64,000 bases of DNA, taken from Eubacteriales bacterium. Lineage in GTDB: Bacteria > Bacillota > Clostridia > Oscillospirales > CAG-272. Location: the NCBI GenBank assembly GCA_045602215.1, contig JAZSBE010000011.1:12203-76202 (forward strand). The letters run 5' to 3'. Positions 568 through 27,609 of this stretch are shown one piece after another. How positions within the stretch are numbered: position 1 is the stretch's first letter; the number at the start of each line of letters is the position of its first letter. Below the pieces are notes generated by a model that saw only the letters and a list, made by a program, of their open reading frames with translations, ran no database searches and was not told where the DNA came from. Made by a program: the position numbers and the translations under genes.

Positions 568-2163
568 ATGGAAAACATCGAAAAGGATAAGACCTTGGAA
601 GATCTTTCCGTTGACGGAACACCCGATACCGAGTTGACCGCCGACCAAACGGAAGAGAAGGTCGATTCCGTTCCCGAAGAAACGGTAGAAACCGAAACGG
701 TAGAAACCGAAGGCGAAGCAGAAGAGCCTGTACAAGAAGAGGTTGTCGAAGACGTCGAAGAAGAAGCGACGGAGGAATCTGCACAGGAAGAAGTCGTCGA
801 AGAAACGGCAGAAGCACCGATTGAAGAAGCAAAAGAGGAAAGCGCGAAAAAGAAGTTGCCGATCGAGCGCGAAAAGCTGATTTCCATGATCCTTGGCGGC
901 GTTGGCATTCTTTTCGTCATTGCACTGTTCATCCGCCTGTTCGCATTCGGATTGACCGCTGATGCATTCCAGTACGGCGTTTTGAAGATGAACGTCTGGG
1001 ATACCCTGAAAGCAGGACTCGGCGAAAATGCGTTCGGCATGAACAATTCGCTTCATTTCTCGCTTGTTCTGGCAATGTACGTGTTCCCGATGCTCGTTGC
1101 GTTCGGTGCAGGCGTGACCTGTCTTGTCCGTTCGCTGATCCTCGTGCTCGGTACGCCGAAGGAAAAGACTGCGCTGACTGAGCCCATGATTTACTCTGCC
1201 GCAGGCATTTACGGTTTGCTCTCTTACGTGGCGATCATGAACGTGATTGCAAGCTTCTGCATGAAGGATTTTGAGAATTGCACCGCACTTTTCAGAGGTG
1301 CGTTTGAACTTGCCGTCATCGCAGGTATCGCATCGCTTCTGCAAAGAGTCATTCGTCAGGCGACCGTTGAACGTGTCATGAAAGCAAAGTTCCATGCCAA
1401 AGCCGAAGTGACAAGCGAACGCCTGGTTCGTAAAGAAATCATCAAGAATCCTACGGCTTTGACCGCACTCGTTCACAGAAACGCGCTCTTTTATGTTACA
1501 TACGGCTTGATGGCAGTCGCCGTGCTCGGCATTCTTTCCTGGCTGATCACCGCCCCCGTTGCGGCAGGTGTTTACGAAGGCGGAATCAAGAGCTTCATCG
1601 AAACTGCTACCGGCGTTGAAGAAATCGACTTCAAGAGCTTTGGCCGTCTGGTCGCAGGCGTGTGCCTGATGATCTCGCTGATCAGCCTGATCTCCCGCCT
1701 TGCATTCCGTGCCGTTGACTTCCTCGGTACGCGTCTTGCATTCGGTGCATCTGCACAGGATCGCTATGAATTCGCAAAGTTTTTGGGTGTTTTCTGGCGC
1801 AGACTGATCTATACGTGCATCTTTGCCGCCGCTTATGCCGCTCTGGCTCCCGGCGATTTCGAGATCGGCAACATCATCACTGCCGTTTTGCCCTATGCGG
1901 TACTTATGGCTTGCTGCATCGTGTTGCGCATCGTTTATGCGATCCTCGCTTGCAACTTGAAGTACGAAACCGTTCCCGCCGCACTCTTTGAAGAAACTCC
2001 CGCAGAAGAACTTCCCGAAGCGGCAGAAGAACAAACCGAAGAAATTGCGGAAGAATCCGCAGAAGAAGCAGTCCAGGAAGAGGCTGATGAAGTCGTTGAG
2101 GATGCGGCTGAAGAAGTTGCCCAAGAGGTGGCTGAAGAAACAACCGAAGAAAAAGCAGAATAA
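568..2163 (+). CDS. polytopic membrane protein with strongly acidic Glu/Val/Thr-rich N- and C-terminal tails (function unknown)
   Basis: The ORF track gives 565..2163 (TTG). The ATG at 568 lies 8 nt after GGAGGG. Acidic tails of about 70 aa and 65 aa flank a core with about 8-9 hydrophobic helices. I recognise no catalytic motif. A hairpin terminator follows. Confidence 0.8.
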   Translation: MENIEKDKTLEDLSVDGTPDTELTADQTEEKVDSVPEETVETETVETEGEAEEPVQEEVVEDVEEEATEESAQEEVVEETAEAPIEEAKEESAKKKLPIEREKLISMILGGVGILFVIALFIRLFAFGLTADAFQYGVLKMNVWDTLKAGLGENAFGMNNSLHFSLVLAMYVFPMLVAFGAGVTCLVRSLILVLGTPKEKTALTEPMIYSAAGIYGLLSYVAIMNVIASFCMKDFENCTALFRGAFELAVIAGIASLLQRVIRQATVERVMKAKFHAKAEVTSERLVRKEIIKNPTALTALVHRNALFYVTYGLMAVAVLGILSWLITAPVAAGVYEGGIKSFIETATGVEEIDFKSFGRLVAGVCLMISLISLISRLAFRAVDFLGTRLAFGASAQDRYEFAKFLGVFWRRLIYTCIFAAAYAALAPGDFEIGNIITAVLPYAVLMACCIVLRIVYAILACNLKYETVPAALFEETPAEELPEAAEEQTEEIAEESAEEAVQEEADEVVEDAAEEVAQEVAEETTEEKAE

Positions 2164-2200
2164 CGGTTTGTATTATTTCCGAAGAATTGCTAATAGAAAA

Positions 2201-2248
2201 GGACAGAGAAACGTCAGTTTGGTGTTTCTCTGTCCTTTTCCTTTTTTT
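2201..2248 (+). terminator. rho-independent terminator
   Basis: Stem and loop ggacagagaaac-gtcagtttggt-gtttctctgtcc, followed by a T-run. Confidence 0.75.
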
Positions 2249-2266
2249 ACACTTTGAAAACCATAC

Positions 2267-2295
2267 TTGACTTTTATACGAAAAAGTTATATAAT
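2267..2295 (+). promoter_or_regulatory. sigma-A-type promoter (TTGACT-17-TATAAT)
   Basis: Reads TTGACTtttatacgaaaaagttaTATAAT, about 95 nt upstream of the ATG at 2390. Confidence 0.6.
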
Positions 2296-2389
2296 GAAGA
2301 TGTTCACAATCAAATTTAAAACTAAAATTTTTTTATAATTAGATGTAAACTCTTGCAGATTCCGACAAATAAGCACTTTTGGGGGCTCT

Positions 2390-4285
2390 ATGAAAATCAA
2401 CAAGAGAAAAATATTTTTAGCCTTTTTTGATATTCTATGTTTTGTTTTTATTGCGACGGTTTGCTTTTTTGTGTCTGCCGCCGGCTTTGATGATGTTTCT
2501 TTTGCAAACGGCGGTAAGTACGTCATTGCCGCTTTCTTTTTGTGCGGCGGTCTGTTCTTCAGCCGACTGCTCTTCGGGGTCTATCGGACCGTATGGCGCT
2601 ATACGAGCACACAAGCTTATTTACGCATCATTTTGGCTGACATTGTCGGCGGTCTTGCCACCGTCGCCGTCGCCGAACTGTTTTTGTATGACAAAAAATT
2701 TTGGGTGTTTATCACAGTCACGGCATTGGATACGTTGATGTCGCTCTCCGCGCGTTTTTGTTATCGTTTGCTTTACAAAAGATCAAAAGGTACGGCAGAT
2801 CCGCGCAGCTGCATCAACATCGGCATTGTCGGCGCGGGTCAGCTCGGTGCTTTTCTGGCAGGAGAGCTTTTGGGAAACGCCATGTCGCATTACCGTCCCG
2901 TTTGCTTTATTGATGTCGATAAAGCAAAGATTGGCAGCCGCATTGCAAGTCTCAAGGTCTTCTCGCCCGAAGATTTCGCCAGAAGACGAGGCTTGATGGA
3001 AGTTTCGGTGGTGGTATTTGCACTTGGGGCGGTCGACGGCGAGAAGAGGACGGCGCTTTGCGATCACTACAAAGAGATCGGTTGTCGCGTGCTGATCTAC
3101 GATTCTCCCATCCATGCGTTCAGCCGACGCAATGGCAAGCGCGTCATCCGTGAATTTGAGATCGAAGACCTGCTTTTCAGGAAACCGTTGTCTGTACTCG
3201 GTGCGGAAAGCATGGAAAAATACCGTGATAAAACCGTTCTCGTTACGGGTGGCGGCGGATCGATCGGCAGTGAGCTTTGCCGCCAGATTGCCACGTGTTC
3301 TCCCAAAAAACTGGTCGTTTTCGATATTTATGAAAATAACGCTTACGATCTGCAACAGGAATTGCATCTGCTTTACGGGGACAAGCTTGACCTGTCGGTT
3401 GAGATCGGCTCTGTTCGTGACCCGAAGCGGTTGGCGTGCGTTTTTGAAAAATACAAGCCTGACATCGTCTTTCACGCGGCGGCGCATAAGCACGTGCCTT
3501 TGATGGAACAGAGCGCAGGCGAAGCTATCAAAAACAACGTTTTCGGTACTTATAATACCGCCAATGCTGCGGAAAAATACGGTGTTGATGCCTTTATTCT
3601 TGTGTCGACTGATAAGGCAGTCAATCCCACCAACATCATGGGCGCGTCCAAGCGGCTTTGCGAAATGGTGATCCAATGCAGAACAGACAGCCGTACGAAA
3701 TTCGCCGCCGTGCGATTCGGAAACGTGCTCGGTTCTAACGGCTCGGTCGTTCCTTTGTTCAAACGGCAGATTGCCAACGGCGGTCCGATCACGATCACCG
3801 ACCGACGCATCATCCGTTACTTTATGACCATTCCCGAAGCCAGCCAGCTGGTCATGACGGCAGGTGCAATGGCAAAAAGCGGCGAACTTTTCGTTCTTGA
3901 TATGGGCAAACCCGTCAAGATCTACGATCTGGCGGTCAATATGATCCGCCTTTCGGGACTTGTGCCCGACGTTGACGTTAAAATCAAGGAAACCGGTCTG
4001 CGTCCGGGCGAAAAGCTCTATGAAGAGCTTCTGATGAAAACCGAAACGCTCGATAAAACCTCCAATAACCTCATCTTTATCGAGCGCGATACTCCGCAAA
4101 CGCGTGAAAGAATGGAAGACATTCTCTGTGAATTGCGCCGCGCACTTGATCTTTATGAAAACAAAGGCAACCTCTGTGCCGTCAAGGATGCCATCAAGAA
4201 GACCGTGCCGACCTTCCGCGAGCCTGAAGAAATCAACGTCTGTGCTGAAAATTCCGAGGAAATGAAGCTTTCTTCGGTGCATTAA
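2390..4285 (+). CDS. membrane-anchored NDP-sugar 4,6-dehydratase/epimerase, CapD/PglF/WbpM family (polysaccharide biosynthesis protein)
   Basis: 631 aa. There are four N-terminal TM helices and two Rossmann segments (IGIVGAGQLG; VLVTGGGGSIGSEL). The CapD-type core STDKAVNPTNIMGASKR is present. Confidence 0.9.
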   Translation: MKINKRKIFLAFFDILCFVFIATVCFFVSAAGFDDVSFANGGKYVIAAFFLCGGLFFSRLLFGVYRTVWRYTSTQAYLRIILADIVGGLATVAVAELFLYDKKFWVFITVTALDTLMSLSARFCYRLLYKRSKGTADPRSCINIGIVGAGQLGAFLAGELLGNAMSHYRPVCFIDVDKAKIGSRIASLKVFSPEDFARRRGLMEVSVVVFALGAVDGEKRTALCDHYKEIGCRVLIYDSPIHAFSRRNGKRVIREFEIEDLLFRKPLSVLGAESMEKYRDKTVLVTGGGGSIGSELCRQIATCSPKKLVVFDIYENNAYDLQQELHLLYGDKLDLSVEIGSVRDPKRLACVFEKYKPDIVFHAAAHKHVPLMEQSAGEAIKNNVFGTYNTANAAEKYGVDAFILVSTDKAVNPTNIMGASKRLCEMVIQCRTDSRTKFAAVRFGNVLGSNGSVVPLFKRQIANGGPITITDRRIIRYFMTIPEASQLVMTAGAMAKSGELFVLDMGKPVKIYDLAVNMIRLSGLVPDVDVKIKETGLRPGEKLYEELLMKTETLDKTSNNLIFIERDTPQTRERMEDILCELRRALDLYENKGNLCAVKDAIKKTVPTFREPEEINVCAENSEEMKLSSVH

Positions 4286-23099: not shown

Positions 23100-23837
23100 T
23101 TATTTTCTCTTGACTTCCCGAATCCCTTGCAGGATCTGCTCCTTTGCGGTGATCGCGTCGGAGACGGAGAGGGCAGGCATGCCTGCCAGCGGGTAGGGAA
23201 TGCCGAGCGATTCATATTTTGAAACGCCCATGGTGTGGTAGGGAAGTACATCCAATGCCTTGAGATTGGAGAGTTTGCCGATGAAGCGTCCGAGCTCAAC
23301 CAGATCGGTGTGCGCGTCGGTGTAGCCCTCTACAATGATGTGACGAACCCACAGGGGGATCTTCCTTTTCTCAAGGTGCTTTGCAAACGCCAGAATTCTG
23401 GCATTGTCGTGCCCCGTCAGCGTTTGGTGCTTTTGGGGGTCGATGTGCTTGATATCCAGCATCACCAGGTCCGTGACCTCAAGCAGGCGGTCGAGCCGCT
23501 CGGTGTGGTCGGGGGTAAAGGTGATTCCGGATGTATCGACACAGGTGTGAATTCCTTGCTCTTTCGCTTTTTGGAAAAGCTCGGTCAGAAACTCGATCTG
23601 CAGCAAGGGCTCTCCGCCCGTGACGGTGATTCCTCCGTTTCGGTAAAAGGGCCGATTCTTTTGGTACTGAGCCAGAAGCTCGTCAACTGACATTTGGGTT
23701 CCTTTGCCGATCTCCCAGGTGTCGGGGTTGTGGCAGTAGAGACACCGCATGGGACAACCCTGAAAGAAGATCACAAATCGGAGCCCCGGGCCGTCAACCG
23801 TACCAAAGCTTTCGGTGGAATGGATGTAACCCAGCAT
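23100..23837 (-). CDS. pflA: pyruvate formate-lyase activating enzyme (radical SAM)
   Basis: 245 aa with the CxxxCxxC motif CPMRCLYCHNPDTW and GGITVTGGEPLLQ. Confidence 0.93.
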   Translation of the reverse strand: MLGYIHSTESFGTVDGPGLRFVIFFQGCPMRCLYCHNPDTWEIGKGTQMSVDELLAQYQKNRPFYRNGGITVTGGEPLLQIEFLTELFQKAKEQGIHTCVDTSGITFTPDHTERLDRLLEVTDLVMLDIKHIDPQKHQTLTGHDNARILAFAKHLEKRKIPLWVRHIIVEGYTDAHTDLVELGRFIGKLSNLKALDVLPYHTMGVSKYESLGIPYPLAGMPALSVSDAITAKEQILQGIREVKRK

Positions 23838-23842
23838 GGAGA

Positions 23843-24085
23843 TCAGATCTGATCGTGGAAGGTTCTGGAGATGACCTCGTCCTGCTGCTCCTTGGTAAGC
23901 TTAATGAAGTTTACCGCGTAGCCGCTCACGCGAACGGTGAGCTGGGGGTACTTTTCGGGATGCGCCTGCGCGTCCAGAAGAGTTTCTCTTGTGAAAACGT
24001 TTACGTTGAGGTGGTGACCGCCCTTTTGAACGTAGCCGTCCAGGAGGTTGACCAGATTGTCAATTTGATTTTGTGTTGCTGCCAT
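23843..24085 (-). CDS. stand-alone glycyl-radical domain (GrcA/YfiD-like; corresponds to the C-terminal ~75 aa of PflB)
   Basis: The ORF track gives 23843..24106 (TTG). The ATG at 24085 lies 6-7 nt after AAAGGAG. The sequence is [76 protein letters not shown], and RVSGYAV is the radical-glycine loop. Confidence 0.85.
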
Positions 24086-24123
24086 GGAAAACTCCTTTCT
24101 TTGCAATCTGCAAAATAGAGATA

Positions 24124-26232
24124 TTAGTTGTTGTCGTCAAGTCCCTCAAAGAGCGTGGGGGATGCGCACGCGCCATTCGAGCAATCGAAGCTGACCGCTA
24201 CGTCGATGTCTCCTGCGAACACACGGTCGTCCTTACCCAGCGCGCCGGGAATGATGGAGAAGGTGTTGGAGATTCCGTCCTGTGCGTCGATGAAGGGAAG
24301 CTTTGCAACGGATGCGAGGGATGCAACTGCGCCGTGGGTATCTCTGCGGTGCATGGGGTTTGCTCCGGGAGCGAACGCCTCACCCTTCTTACGTCCGTCG
24401 GGGGTTGCACCGGTATTCTTACCGTATACCACGTTGGAGGTAATGGTCAGAATAGAGGTTGTGGGAACGCCGCCTCTGTAAGTATGGTTCTTACGGATGT
24501 GCTCCATGAAGCGGTGAACGATATCGTAAGCAAGCGTATCTACGCGGTCATCGTCGTTTCCGAACTTGGGGAAGTCTCCCTCTACCTCGTAGTCAACTGC
24601 CAGTCCCTGCTCGTTGCGGAGAACCTTAACCTTGCCGTACTTGATCGCGGACAGAGAGTCTGCAACGACCGAGAGACCGGCAATTCCGGTTGCGAACCAA
24701 CGGGTAACGTCCTTATCGTGAAGAGCCATCTGGAGACGCTCGTAGCAGTACTTGTCATGCATATAGTGAATGACGTTGAGGGTGTTTACGTAAACGTTAG
24801 CAAGCCACTTCATCATATCGTCATACTTCTGCATAACCTCGTCGAAATCAAGATACTCGGAGGTGATGGGACGGTAAGCGGGACCAACCTGCTTTCCGGA
24901 GATCTCATCCACACCGCCGTTGATCGCGTAAAGCAAGCACTTTGCAAGGTTTGCTCTTGCGCCGAAGAACTGCATTTCCTTACCCAGACGCATAGAGGAT
25001 ACGCAGCATGCGATCGCATAGTCGTCGCCATGGGTGAATCTCATCAGGTCGTCATTCTCGTACTGAACGGAGGACGTCTCGATGGAGGTCTTTGCGCAGA
25101 AGCGCTTGAAGTTCTCGGGAAGCTTTACAGACCAGAGCACCGTGAGGTTGGGCTCGGGAGCAGCTCCGAGGTTGGACAGGGTGTGCAGGTAACGGTAGGA
25201 CATCTTGGTGACAAGGTGAGAACCGCTGATGGAAACACCGCCGATGGACTCGGTTACCCACTGGGGGTCGCCGGAGAAGAGCGCGTTGTACTCGGGAGTA
25301 CGTGCGAACTTGATCAGACGGAGCTTCATGATGAAATGGTCAACCATTTCCTGAATCTCGTTCTCGGTGAACAGACCCTTCTTGAGGTCTCTCTCCGCGT
25401 AGATGTCAAGGAAGGTGGAGGTACGTCCGAGGGACATTGCGGCACCGTTCTGCTCCTTGACTGCTGCAAGGTAGCCGAAGTACAGCCACTGGATCGCTTC
25501 CTTTACGTTGCCGGCAGGTCTGGAAATGTCAAAGCCGTAGGATGCAGCCATTTCCTTGAGCTCTTCAAGCGCGCGGATCTGCTCAGACAGCTCTTCTCTC
25601 GCACGGATGATGTGAGAGAACATTGCAGAACGAGTGGTCTCCTTCTGCTCCTTCTTGTCCTCGATCAGACGGTCTACACCGTAGAGCGCAACTCTTCTGT
25701 AGTCACCGATGATTCTTCCGCGGCCGTAAGCATCGGGAAGACCGGTGATGATATGGCTGGAGCGGCATGCTCTCATCTCGGGGGTGTAGGCATCAAAAAC
25801 GCCTGCGTTGTGAGTCTTTCTGTACTTGGTGAAGAACTCCTTTACCTCGGGGTCGATGGTGTAGCCGTTGTCAGCGCAAGCCTTCTCTGCCATACGGATT
25901 CCGCCGTAGGGCATCAGCGCACGCTTGAGGGGCTTTTCGGTCTGAAGACCGACGATCGTCTCCTTCTCACGGTTGAGGTATCCGGGAGCGTGGGAGGTAA
26001 TGGTGGAGATTACCTTGGTGTCCATATCCAATACGCCGCCGCGCTCTCTTTCCTGTCTGGTCAGATCCATGACCTGATCCCACAGGTCGAGCGTGTTCTG
26101 CGTGGGACCTTCCAGGAAGGACTCGTCTCCGTCATAAGGAGTATAGTTATGCTTGATAAAGCTTCTTACATTAATTTCCTTGGTCCAGGTAGCAGTACGG
26201 AACCCTTCCCATTCTTTGTAGATTTCGTGCAT
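24124..26232 (-). CDS. pflB: pyruvate formate-lyase catalytic core lacking its own glycyl-radical domain (split pflB)
   Basis: The ORF track gives 24124..26463. The likely start is [11 protein letters not shown] (ATG 26232, 9 nt after GAAGGG), with an alternative at 26241. It is collinear with PflB down to ..[29 protein letters not shown]. It then diverges into a 33-aa tail ([33 protein letters not shown]) and stops. Confidence 0.88.
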
Positions 26233-26422
26233 CTCACTCATCCCTTCTGTTTGATTTTCTATCACCCTATATTGTACATTTTTTTTGTAGGAAAAGCAAG
26301 AGTTTTTCAAAATTTTTTCTCGGAAAATGCAATTTCGTCTGTTTTTCCGTGAAATGAAGCGCAAAAACCGATTCCCTTGGACGGATTGACGATGGATTGG
26401 CGCAAATCTCTTGTTTTTTTGT

Positions 26423-26464
26423 ATTGTACCATTTTTTCGGTTGCTCTTCTGTGATTCGGTCACA
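26423..26464 (-). promoter_or_regulatory. candidate distal pfl promoter (extended -10 TGgTACAAT) with TGTGA-N5-TCACA palindrome centred near -41
   Basis: Minus strand reads TGTGAccgaaTCACAgaagagcaaccgaaaaaaTGgTACAAT. A proximal TTGCTT-17-TACAAT lies at about 26271-26299. Confidence 0.35.
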
Positions 26465-26493: not shown

Positions 26494-27477
26494 TCAGGAG
26501 AGATCCTTTGGAAAATAGAATTGCTCGGTTTTGACGAGCGGATAGGATCGCAGTGTGGCGGCGTTGATCGCGTCCTCGGAGAGCGAAACCGAGGAGATCC
26601 GGTGATTCCCATAGGTCTTGCAGTAGCAGGTTTTCCCTTCGGTGTCGTAGCAGGAGGTGTACTGCGTGTGCTCTGAAGCGTTACCCAATTTCAGGCATCC
26701 CTCGATCTGCTCCACCGCGCCAAGAATGTGGAAGAACTGGTTGACCGAGTCCTCAGCGGTATCTTTGAGGGGAGCATTCAGCTTGGCGAACGCCGCGCGG
26801 ACGAATCGAGAGGGAGAGGTCCAGTCGCCCGGAAGCCCCAACGCGCCCGTTCCGCGTGAGATGGGAGACTCTGTAAAGTTGCCGCCAAAGCGAGGGGAGG
26901 GAGGCTCCTCTGCGGTGAGATTTTGATAGAGTGAGAGGTTTTCAAGCTGGTGGAGGAAGGGGGGATTGTTGGTAAGAACGCCCACGGGATTGTCGTAGAC
27001 GCAAAGCCCGTCGGCGGTTGGCTCCACGGCAATCGAGCCGCTTTTGTCCGACAGCATCCAATGGAGTCTTGCAACCGGAAGATCCCGGCGAAAGGAGACG
27101 TCCAGCAGGTTGATGCGTCCCAGCTCAGCTCTTGCCTCAGCGAGATTTCGACACCTGCCGAGCAGCCAGGGGATCAACTCAAATTGCGCCAGGTTATACA
27201 TCCCCTCCTCCCAAGGGAGGTAGACGGCGTTACCGACGAAATTCAACCCTGCAATGCCAAGCCCGTGCTCGTTGCAGGCGTCGTAGTAGAGGGGATAGTC
27301 GTCCATGACGGTGGCGATTCCGATCATGGCGTAGTGGTTTTCGTCGGCGGGAAGCTCCAGAAAGCGAAAGGGAAACCGTCGCGGCGTTACGACGATATGC
27401 TCGTCATACGTGTATTCCAGATCCAGCGTTCTGCCAAAGTAGTGGCGGCGTGAGAGATGAGAAATTGCGGTGCACAT
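26494..27477 (-). CDS. choloylglycine hydrolase family protein (bile salt hydrolase / penicillin V acylase-type Ntn hydrolase)
   Basis: The ORF track gives 26494..27510. I take the start at MCTAIS.. so that Cys2 is the N-terminal nucleophile. FGRTLDLEY and the family-typical length (327 aa) fit. Confidence 0.88.
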   Translation of the reverse strand: MCTAISHLSRRHYFGRTLDLEYTYDEHIVVTPRRFPFRFLELPADENHYAMIGIATVMDDYPLYYDACNEHGLGIAGLNFVGNAVYLPWEEGMYNLAQFELIPWLLGRCRNLAEARAELGRINLLDVSFRRDLPVARLHWMLSDKSGSIAVEPTADGLCVYDNPVGVLTNNPPFLHQLENLSLYQNLTAEEPPSPRFGGNFTESPISRGTGALGLPGDWTSPSRFVRAAFAKLNAPLKDTAEDSVNQFFHILGAVEQIEGCLKLGNASEHTQYTSCYDTEGKTCYCKTYGNHRISSVSLSEDAINAATLRSYPLVKTEQFYFPKDLS

Positions 27478-27609
27478 AAAAAAGCTCCTTTTTTTCATTA
27501 GCGTGGGCAAAAAAAGGCAGTTTTATGCGGCGGAATTGATGTGAGGATCATAAATCAAGCCGTCCCGCACATACACTTGAAGGGAATACGGAATGCACGG
27601 AGGCAAGAA

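Follow-up and report, generated by a model that had tools for sequence, protein, structure and literature searches.

A probable two-chain pyruvate formate-lyase with a separately encoded glycyl-radical subunit in a Eubacteriales bacterium

Introduction

Pyruvate formate-lyase (PFL) was the founding member of the glycyl radical enzymes and is a main route to formate and acetyl-coenzyme A (acetyl-CoA) in gut and rumen fermenters. Here we describe a PFL locus in a window of 64,000 nucleotides (nt), the whole stretch of DNA that was analysed, from a gut Eubacteriales bacterium of the Clostridia (assembly GCA_045602215.1, contig JAZSBE010000011.1, positions 12,203 to 76,202). At this locus, the pflB gene encodes a PFL body that ends ahead of the glycyl-radical domain, and this domain is encoded by a small open reading frame (ORF), grcA3, which is followed by the activase gene pflA. 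With the described E. coli PflB/PflA system (PDB 1H16/2PFL) the locus shares fold, chemistry, the catalytic Cys-Cys pair and the RVSGYAV alignment, and it likewise has an adjacent PflA equivalog. Compared with E. coli PflB, however, the chain breaks off past the counterpart of K676-D678, it carries a 33-residue acidic Cys tail that is absent in E. coli, and the radical domain is a separate protein.

Small free proteins with a radical glycine, as is GrcA3, have been described for E. coli (GrcA/YfiD, PDB 6OWR) and phage T4 (Y06I). GrcA/YfiD is activated by PflA and hands its radical in trans to a PFL body, and an engineered complex of truncated PFL with YfiD, tPFL(1-695):YfiD, is competent, reaching wild-type activity once activated (PMC8683613). 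In vivo, formate production by E. coli PflB-G734A is rescued by GrcA (PMC12338860). GrcA backs up an intact PflB, whereas the body encoded in the window never has a radical domain of its own. Relative to YfiD, GrcA3 is without the disordered N-terminal half; its alignment to PflB begins 17-20 residues further towards the N-terminus and takes in the helix that precedes strand beta10. The NCBI family NF038360 (GrcA3) matches the small ORF, but it is a database label only. A 2026 review of glycyl radical enzymes treats free radical-domain proteins only as YfiD-type spare parts and describes no default two-chain enzymes. Our literature search, which covered few subscription journals, returned no paper on GrcA3, NF038360, a split PFL design or a constitutively domain-less body.

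Results

PFL is divided between two ORFs at the hinge ahead of the radical domain

The genes and sites of the locus all lie on the minus strand of the window, as follows (body residues are numbered in the 702-residue form; aa, amino acids):

24124..26232 (minus), including stop: pflB body, 702-aa PFL catalytic subunit without glycyl-radical domain; matches TIGR01255, PF02901 and 1H16
25003..25008 (minus): codons TGCTGC of the catalytic pair Cys409-Cys410, within AIACCVSSM (E. coli C418/C419)
24127..24225 (minus): 33-aa C-terminal tail of the body, residues 670-702
24124..24126 (minus): body stop codon TAA, also present in independent contigs
24086..24123 (minus): 38-nt spacer holding the Shine-Dalgarno sequence AAAGGAG (24098-24092), followed by TTTTCC (6 nt) up to the ATG
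23843..24085 (minus), including stop: grcA3, 80-aa glycyl-radical subunit, with ATG at 24085 and TGA at 23845-23843
23921..23923 (minus): codon GGC of Gly55, the predicted radical site (E. coli PflB G734)
23100..23837 (minus): pflA, 245-aa PFL-activating radical S-adenosylmethionine enzyme; matches TIGR02493

The body matches canonical PFL as far as ..ALGKDD and then continues into the tail and the TAA. A sequence-only reading of this DNA had reported a canonical body ORF ending in 33 codons and a TAA at 24124, and 38 nt further on a Shine-Dalgarno sequence and an ATG opening an 80-codon ORF; all of these elements are indeed present, with 6 nt between AAAGGAG and ATG. The frame of grcA3 differs from that of the body. 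Alignment to PflB, as that reading had proposed, placed the break after the equivalent of E. coli K676-D678. The insert that it had noted at the hinge is likewise there, but the surplus DNA relative to a continuous PflB amounts to about 143 nt and not ~149 nt, and the inserted codons are not recent unrelated sequence but an old conserved acidic Cys module (see below).

Profile searches assigned complementary parts of one enzyme to the two ORFs. The body scored 1105.6 bits against NCBIfam TIGR01255 (cut-off 994.2), with the match confined to positions 1-665 of the 744 in the profile; positions 664-743, the remainder of the model, were covered by the small ORF. PF01228 was divided in the same manner, with profile positions 1-50 at the body end and 49-106 in the small ORF. 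The body further matched PF02901 (E = 1.8e-227) and residues 9-681 of E. coli PFL 1H16 (985 bits). It has the TIGR01255 barrel together with the Cys-Cys pair, which was invariant among 109 aligned PflBs, but the RVSGYAV glycyl-radical domain is found in the separate 80-aa ORF instead of the same polypeptide. The product of the downstream gene matched the PflA activase model TIGR02493 (303.9 bits, cut-off 231.75). Within the 64-kb window, there is a single PFL body and a single radical domain.

The small ORF belongs to the GrcA3 family NF038360 (169.2 bits, cut-off 158; profile positions 2-78 of 78), and it falls under the cut-offs of GrcA (TIGR04365, 93.9 versus 170) and GrcA2 (NF008341, 103.5 versus 145). 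It is laid out as a helix, strand beta10, the Gly loop RVSG55YAV and a C-terminal helix. Residues 9-77 align with E. coli PflB 683-756, including RVSGYAV, whereas only residues 21-78 align with YfiD 68-125 and there is no N-terminal extension. Based on these alignments, GrcA3 appears to be literally the C-terminal 80 residues of a PFL rather than a YfiD-type protein. In an AlphaFold model, the in-frame stop read-through of the related locus L019 superposed over its full length on 2pfl_A (template-modelling score 0.86), the models being mediocre overall (mean predicted local distance difference test score, pLDDT, 77-82).

The junction is found in independent assemblies and is transcribed

A Logan contig from the probable source run (X1) spans positions 23876-24286 with 0 differences. 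Two contigs from independent gut metagenomes (X3, 23853-24451; X4, 23876-24957) also cross the junction without indels, and all five differences that they show in the tail region are synonymous. A bovine metatranscriptome contig (X2, 24081-24429) covers the tail, the stop codon, the Shine-Dalgarno sequence and the ATG; the junction region is transcribed. Other assemblies, to which the sequence-only reading had pointed as a check on the insert, thus hold the same junction in both DNA and RNA. Together with the recurrence of the split in relatives and the purifying selection described below, these contigs show that the locus is not a pseudogene and not the product of an assembly error.

The split and its translation signal are conserved under purifying selection

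Using GrcA3 as query in species-representative genomes, we obtained at least 597 confirmed matches, from which 80 related loci were kept. These derive from taxa of gut, rumen and other habitats, namely Lachnospiraceae, Oscillospiraceae, Acutalibacteraceae, Ruminococcus, Christensenellaceae, Erysipelotrichaceae, Gastranaerophilales and spirochaete metagenome-assembled genomes (MAGs). NCBI MAG records name the relatives GrcA or GrcA3. In word-indexed searches, 80-aa GrcA3 proteins (91-98% identical) made up thousands of 90%-identity clusters, as did ~700-aa bodies bearing the same tail.

In 79 of the 80 loci, a figure biased by the choice of GrcA3 itself as query, a small ORF of its own encodes the radical domain, and the upstream body always stops just past ..ALGK(DD), so that the split that was to be looked for in related genomes recurs at the same hinge. 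Spacer lengths among these relatives run from -17 to 406 nt and the relative frames 0, 1 and 2 all occur, while a strong Shine-Dalgarno sequence 6-9 nt ahead of the small-ORF ATG is near-universal and is found in nearly all of the 46 loci with a short gap. As spacer and frame vary while the Shine-Dalgarno sequence is kept, GrcA3 seems to be initiated independently and without recoding. The gene next to grcA3 on the same strand is pflA in 56 of the 80 loci, with a spacing of -4 to +11 nt in about 34.

Selection was evaluated by comparing the window with 17 relatives, the body being represented by its last 133 residues. Synonymous sites were saturated (synonymous divergence, dS, above 1 or undefined). 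Non-synonymous divergence (dN) was 0.02-0.10 for GrcA3, 0.07-0.14 for the body part and 0.20-0.36 for the tail, and the dN/dS ratio (omega), where defined, was 0.02-0.04 for GrcA3, 0.05-0.13 for the C-terminal region of the body and about 0.12-0.17 for the tail. These values indicate that body, tail and GrcA3 are all maintained as protein by purifying selection. The original suggestion, a core of ~79 kDa plus a radical subunit of ~9 kDa that has translation signals of its own and precedes pflA, is hence supported by family profiles and conservation alike.

Split and fused forms interleave on the PflB tree

One locus, L040 (Treponemataceae, 1865-4225), encodes a fused PflB of 786 aa and has no pflA directly downstream. 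A search with this protein returned canonical PflBs of 741-746 aa (..ALGKDEESSENNLV..) and, in addition, PflBs of 751-794 aa that carry a hinge insert right after ..ALGK (among P0271-P0308). The inserts comprise 10-60 residues and are acidic and often Cys-rich, e.g. ..IFADNINTELCEECGDTAYVPN.. and ..GCCCNTVS..; the fused PflBs that bear them come from Treponemataceae, Ruminococcus and Lachnospiraceae.

In a phylogeny of 94 bodies, built without the hinge and all downstream residues, the split or fused state changed at least 12 times, with at least 7 changes forced by well-supported branches. Fused P0308 stands beside split L071 and fused P0303 beside split L078, and fused P0305 falls inside the window's own clade of 21 members. 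The junction of P0305 (..GEPEIDSQINNLV..) looks like the result of a deletion reaching from the GD.E.D of the tail into the start of GrcA3. Given that the two forms interleave and that the link is readily gained and lost, the tree suggests that both split and fused forms work.

The acidic tail is related to a free Cys protein

The tail of the window's body is acidic (6 D/E and 1 R among its 33 residues) and contains two Cys in the motif DC-x3-AC-x2-PTLFEGLD. The consensus among close relatives is [QR][IV]F[AV]GD[IL][DE][IV]-[DE][LF]D-C-x3-AC-x2-PTLFEGLD, the tails of other clades show PDCACCEPN, GCCE or CGCCEGTC, and Ruminococcus-type bodies have a short tail without Cys, ..VFAGDLDLDKLRGE. Searches of the tail against Pfam and PDB gave no match.

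Loci with gaps of 200-400 nt encode a middle ORF of about 64-85 aa between body and grcA3 (L024, L026, L030, L031, L036, L037, L041-L044, L047, L048, L050-L052, L054-L056, L059, L060, L062, L066, L067, L069 and L080). Its N-terminus resembles the helix and beta10 of GrcA3 (..ELADLIDKLMSQGSGHVNI..), and its C-terminus reads ..VDTVNSTDC-x3-5-AC-x-[VQ]P[TN].., sometimes continuing to ..PTLFEGLD. No Pfam family matched the middle ORF above threshold, the best being PF01228 with E = 0.029 for P0413. When tails and middle ORFs were compared by hhalign, they aligned across the Cys motif with a probability of 93.6% (E = 2e-7). A tail-only profile run against 1.84 billion representatives (50%-identity library) gave 26 matches, which included the free middle proteins P0408, P0413 and P0415 and otherwise consisted mostly of gene fragments or chimeric calls; the number is small because full-length bodies cluster with ordinary PFLs. 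From the hhalign homology and the retrieval of middle proteins by the tail-only profile, we infer that the window tail corresponds to a Cys module that other lineages make as a separate protein and that is here fused to the body.

The tail motif was also seen behind unrelated, often hydrophobic N-termini in P0390, P0394, P0395, P0405, P0411 and P0412, which are probably not real proteins but products of wrong ORF calling or of chimeric contigs at a pflB end.

The Cys module accordingly takes three forms. In the window it is the body tail, in Ruminococcus-type loci it is a free GrcA-like protein of ~70 aa, and some fused PflBs carry it as an in-line insert. The three-part Ruminococcus-type loci (body, ~70-aa Cys protein, GrcA3) share with the window the hinge break, GrcA3 and the homology of the Cys motif. 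In contrast to them, the window has two genes, with the Cys module fused to the body, and the part of the middle protein that resembles the GrcA helix and beta10 is absent.

A Cys2His2 metal site formed by the tail Cys and the His-His of GrcA3 (GGHHLNVNV) was considered but discarded, since HH is equally present in canonical fused PflBs lacking a Cys insert and there is no covariation.

The closest solved chains resemble a domain-less body

The solved chains closest to the body are two PDB entries named 'Formate acetyltransferase', 38LB (739 residues) and 38LA (687 residues), which scored 1151 and 1116 bits, respectively, versus 985 for E. coli PFL. 38LB runs beyond ..ALGK into the Cys-containing SGNVMFGECDMC.. 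and has no glycyl-radical domain, while 38LA stops exactly where the tail would begin. Both are ~73% identical to the bodies of the window's clade, and their tail is of another type, without a match to the tail profile. The entries contain no GrcA3-like chain and are absent from the Foldseek copy of PDB that runs to April 2026; no paper linked to 38LA or 38LB was found in the literature searched. Judged by sequence, the pair resembles a PFL body lacking the radical domain, once with and once without its tail, and with these two entries deposited, such a body appears to be already under study by a laboratory.

Gene starts, probable translational coupling and flanking elements

The body most likely starts at ATG 26232 (702 aa), since its closest homologues P0121 and P0122 (96-98% identical) begin there and a Shine-Dalgarno sequence, GAAGGGA, lies 8 nt upstream; the alternative ATG 26241 would give 705 aa. 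A 779-aa body starting at GTG 26463, as in a mechanical ORF list (24124-26463), was discarded, its extra 77 residues matching nothing in PFL. The pflA ATG is located 5 nt past the grcA3 stop without a Shine-Dalgarno sequence (junction 23838-23845, TGATCTCCATG). Because of this 5-nt spacing, the lack of an own Shine-Dalgarno sequence and the recurrence of the spacing in relatives, pflA is likely to be translationally coupled to grcA3 by termination-reinitiation.

No RNA family of Rfam matched the locus, and no terminator-like site was found in the spacer region. A candidate internal grcA3 promoter in the tail codons (TTGACG-17-TATTTT, 24140-24112) was rejected as a chance-level match that is absent from all close relatives.

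Ahead of pflB on the minus strand, a possible CRP/FNR-type site is formed by a TGTGA-N5-TCACA dyad with TGgTACAAT behind it (26438-26452), and a second element, TTGCTT-17-TACAAT, lies nearer to the gene (26263-26290). Further upstream, the ORF at 26494-27510 (minus) begins ..MCTAISHLSRRHYFGRTLDLEY.. and may encode an N-terminal nucleophile hydrolase resembling the choloylglycine (bile-salt) hydrolase / penicillin V acylase type.

Discussion

The data are best explained by a locus that probably encodes an obligate two-chain PFL. The three genes pflB, grcA3 and pflA would be carried on one transcript, with grcA3 being translated from its own Shine-Dalgarno sequence and pflA by coupling. PflA would then take the H atom from Gly55 of GrcA3, and GrcA3 would dock in the empty socket of the body in the manner of the covalent domain of E. 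coli PFL, placing Gly55 beside Cys409/Cys410. The resulting complex would turn pyruvate and CoA into acetyl-CoA and formate. Since the radical-bearing piece is untethered, it could reach PflA without the domain-flipping that is required in single-chain PFL, and after cleavage by oxygen only the 9-kDa chain would need to be replaced. By analogy with the E. coli experiments, it is plausible that the radical subunit is exchangeable.

Several observations weigh against this two-chain explanation. E. coli PFL without residues 696-733 binds YfiD weakly (PMC8683613), which implies that a domain-less body needs some compensating feature. The tail is predicted to be disordered, with AlphaFold pLDDT values of 33-38 in the body alone and 24-32 in the L019 read-through fusion, and the models give no support for docking. 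The evidence for co-transcription consists of contigs and not reads, and the RNA contig enters grcA3 by only 4 nt. Finally, the recurrence of the split among related loci was counted in a set that had been collected with GrcA3.

Alternatively, GrcA3 might merely be a spare part for an intact single-chain PflB encoded elsewhere, with the adjacent body being inactive or having another role. The NCBI family name 'autonomous glycyl radical cofactor' implies such a view, and single-chain PflBs of 741-794 aa do exist in related Lachnospiraceae and Clostridia. We nevertheless consider this improbable: the body retains every invariant PFL residue including Cys-Cys, is under strong purifying selection and always adjoins grcA3, usually together with pflA, whereas GrcA3 misses the GrcA cut-off (93.9 versus 170) and is without the disordered N-terminus of ~60 residues that YfiD requires for binding. 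Moreover, the only PFL body and the only radical domain found within the window are those of this locus.

That the stop codon splits what is a single ORF in E. coli could also reflect a recently broken pflB or a sequencing or assembly error. However, the same junction without indels in independent metagenomes, a layout kept across hundreds of species despite saturated synonymous sites, a dedicated and conserved Shine-Dalgarno sequence and an NCBI-curated family model for the small protein leave this explanation with next to no credibility. The recently inactivated gene, which the sequence-only reading had offered as one of two outcomes, is refuted by conservation, selection and the independent contigs; its other outcome, a functional two-subunit enzyme, is strongly favoured by the conserved hinge break and Shine-Dalgarno sequence, purifying selection, the intact Cys-Cys pair and Gly, and transcription of the region. 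Equally far-fetched is a rejoining of the halves, be it by recoding (frameshift, bypass of the ~40-nt gap, or read-through) or by RNA or protein splicing. The ORFs are close and in some relatives in frame with one stop between them, but the spacer varies from -17 to 406 nt with all three relative frames. Instead of conserved slippery or take-off/landing signals, a strong Shine-Dalgarno sequence and ATG are conserved; neither an intron nor another RNA family of Rfam matches the locus; and the tail is without intein boundary residues and is conserved as protein.

With regard to the tail of the two-chain enzyme, our best guess, drawn by analogy, is that it flexibly captures or recognises GrcA3, much as residues 696-733 would do in E. 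coli PFL after cleavage by oxygen; a latch that depends on redox state or metal is the less probable role. In a wider and rather unlikely scenario, the acidic Cys module would be a third functional part of the system, sitting at the socket of the radical domain as a latch or placeholder sensitive to redox state or metal and governing how GrcA3 docks, is retained or is exchanged. If there were a latch of this kind, the oxygen or redox state would affect both the activity and the repair of PFL in strict gut anaerobes.

Together, the arrangement described here is a real, ancient and widespread two-chain variant of a textbook enzyme that carries a database label and is without description in the papers searched; the window contributes a further member. 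This work newly connects the tail by homology to a free Cys protein, shows that fission and fusion have recurred at the hinge, and draws attention to the PDB entries. The repeated switching between split and fused forms suggests that the covalent link at the hinge is dispensable. For annotation and metabolic reconstruction, a 'formate C-acetyltransferase' of ~700 aa without a GrcA3 partner is an incomplete enzyme. A widespread natural two-chain PFL offers a system for studying how a radical domain meets its activase, is inserted into the body and is replaced after oxygen damage, and it would explain how strict anaerobes limit the cost of transient exposure to oxygen.

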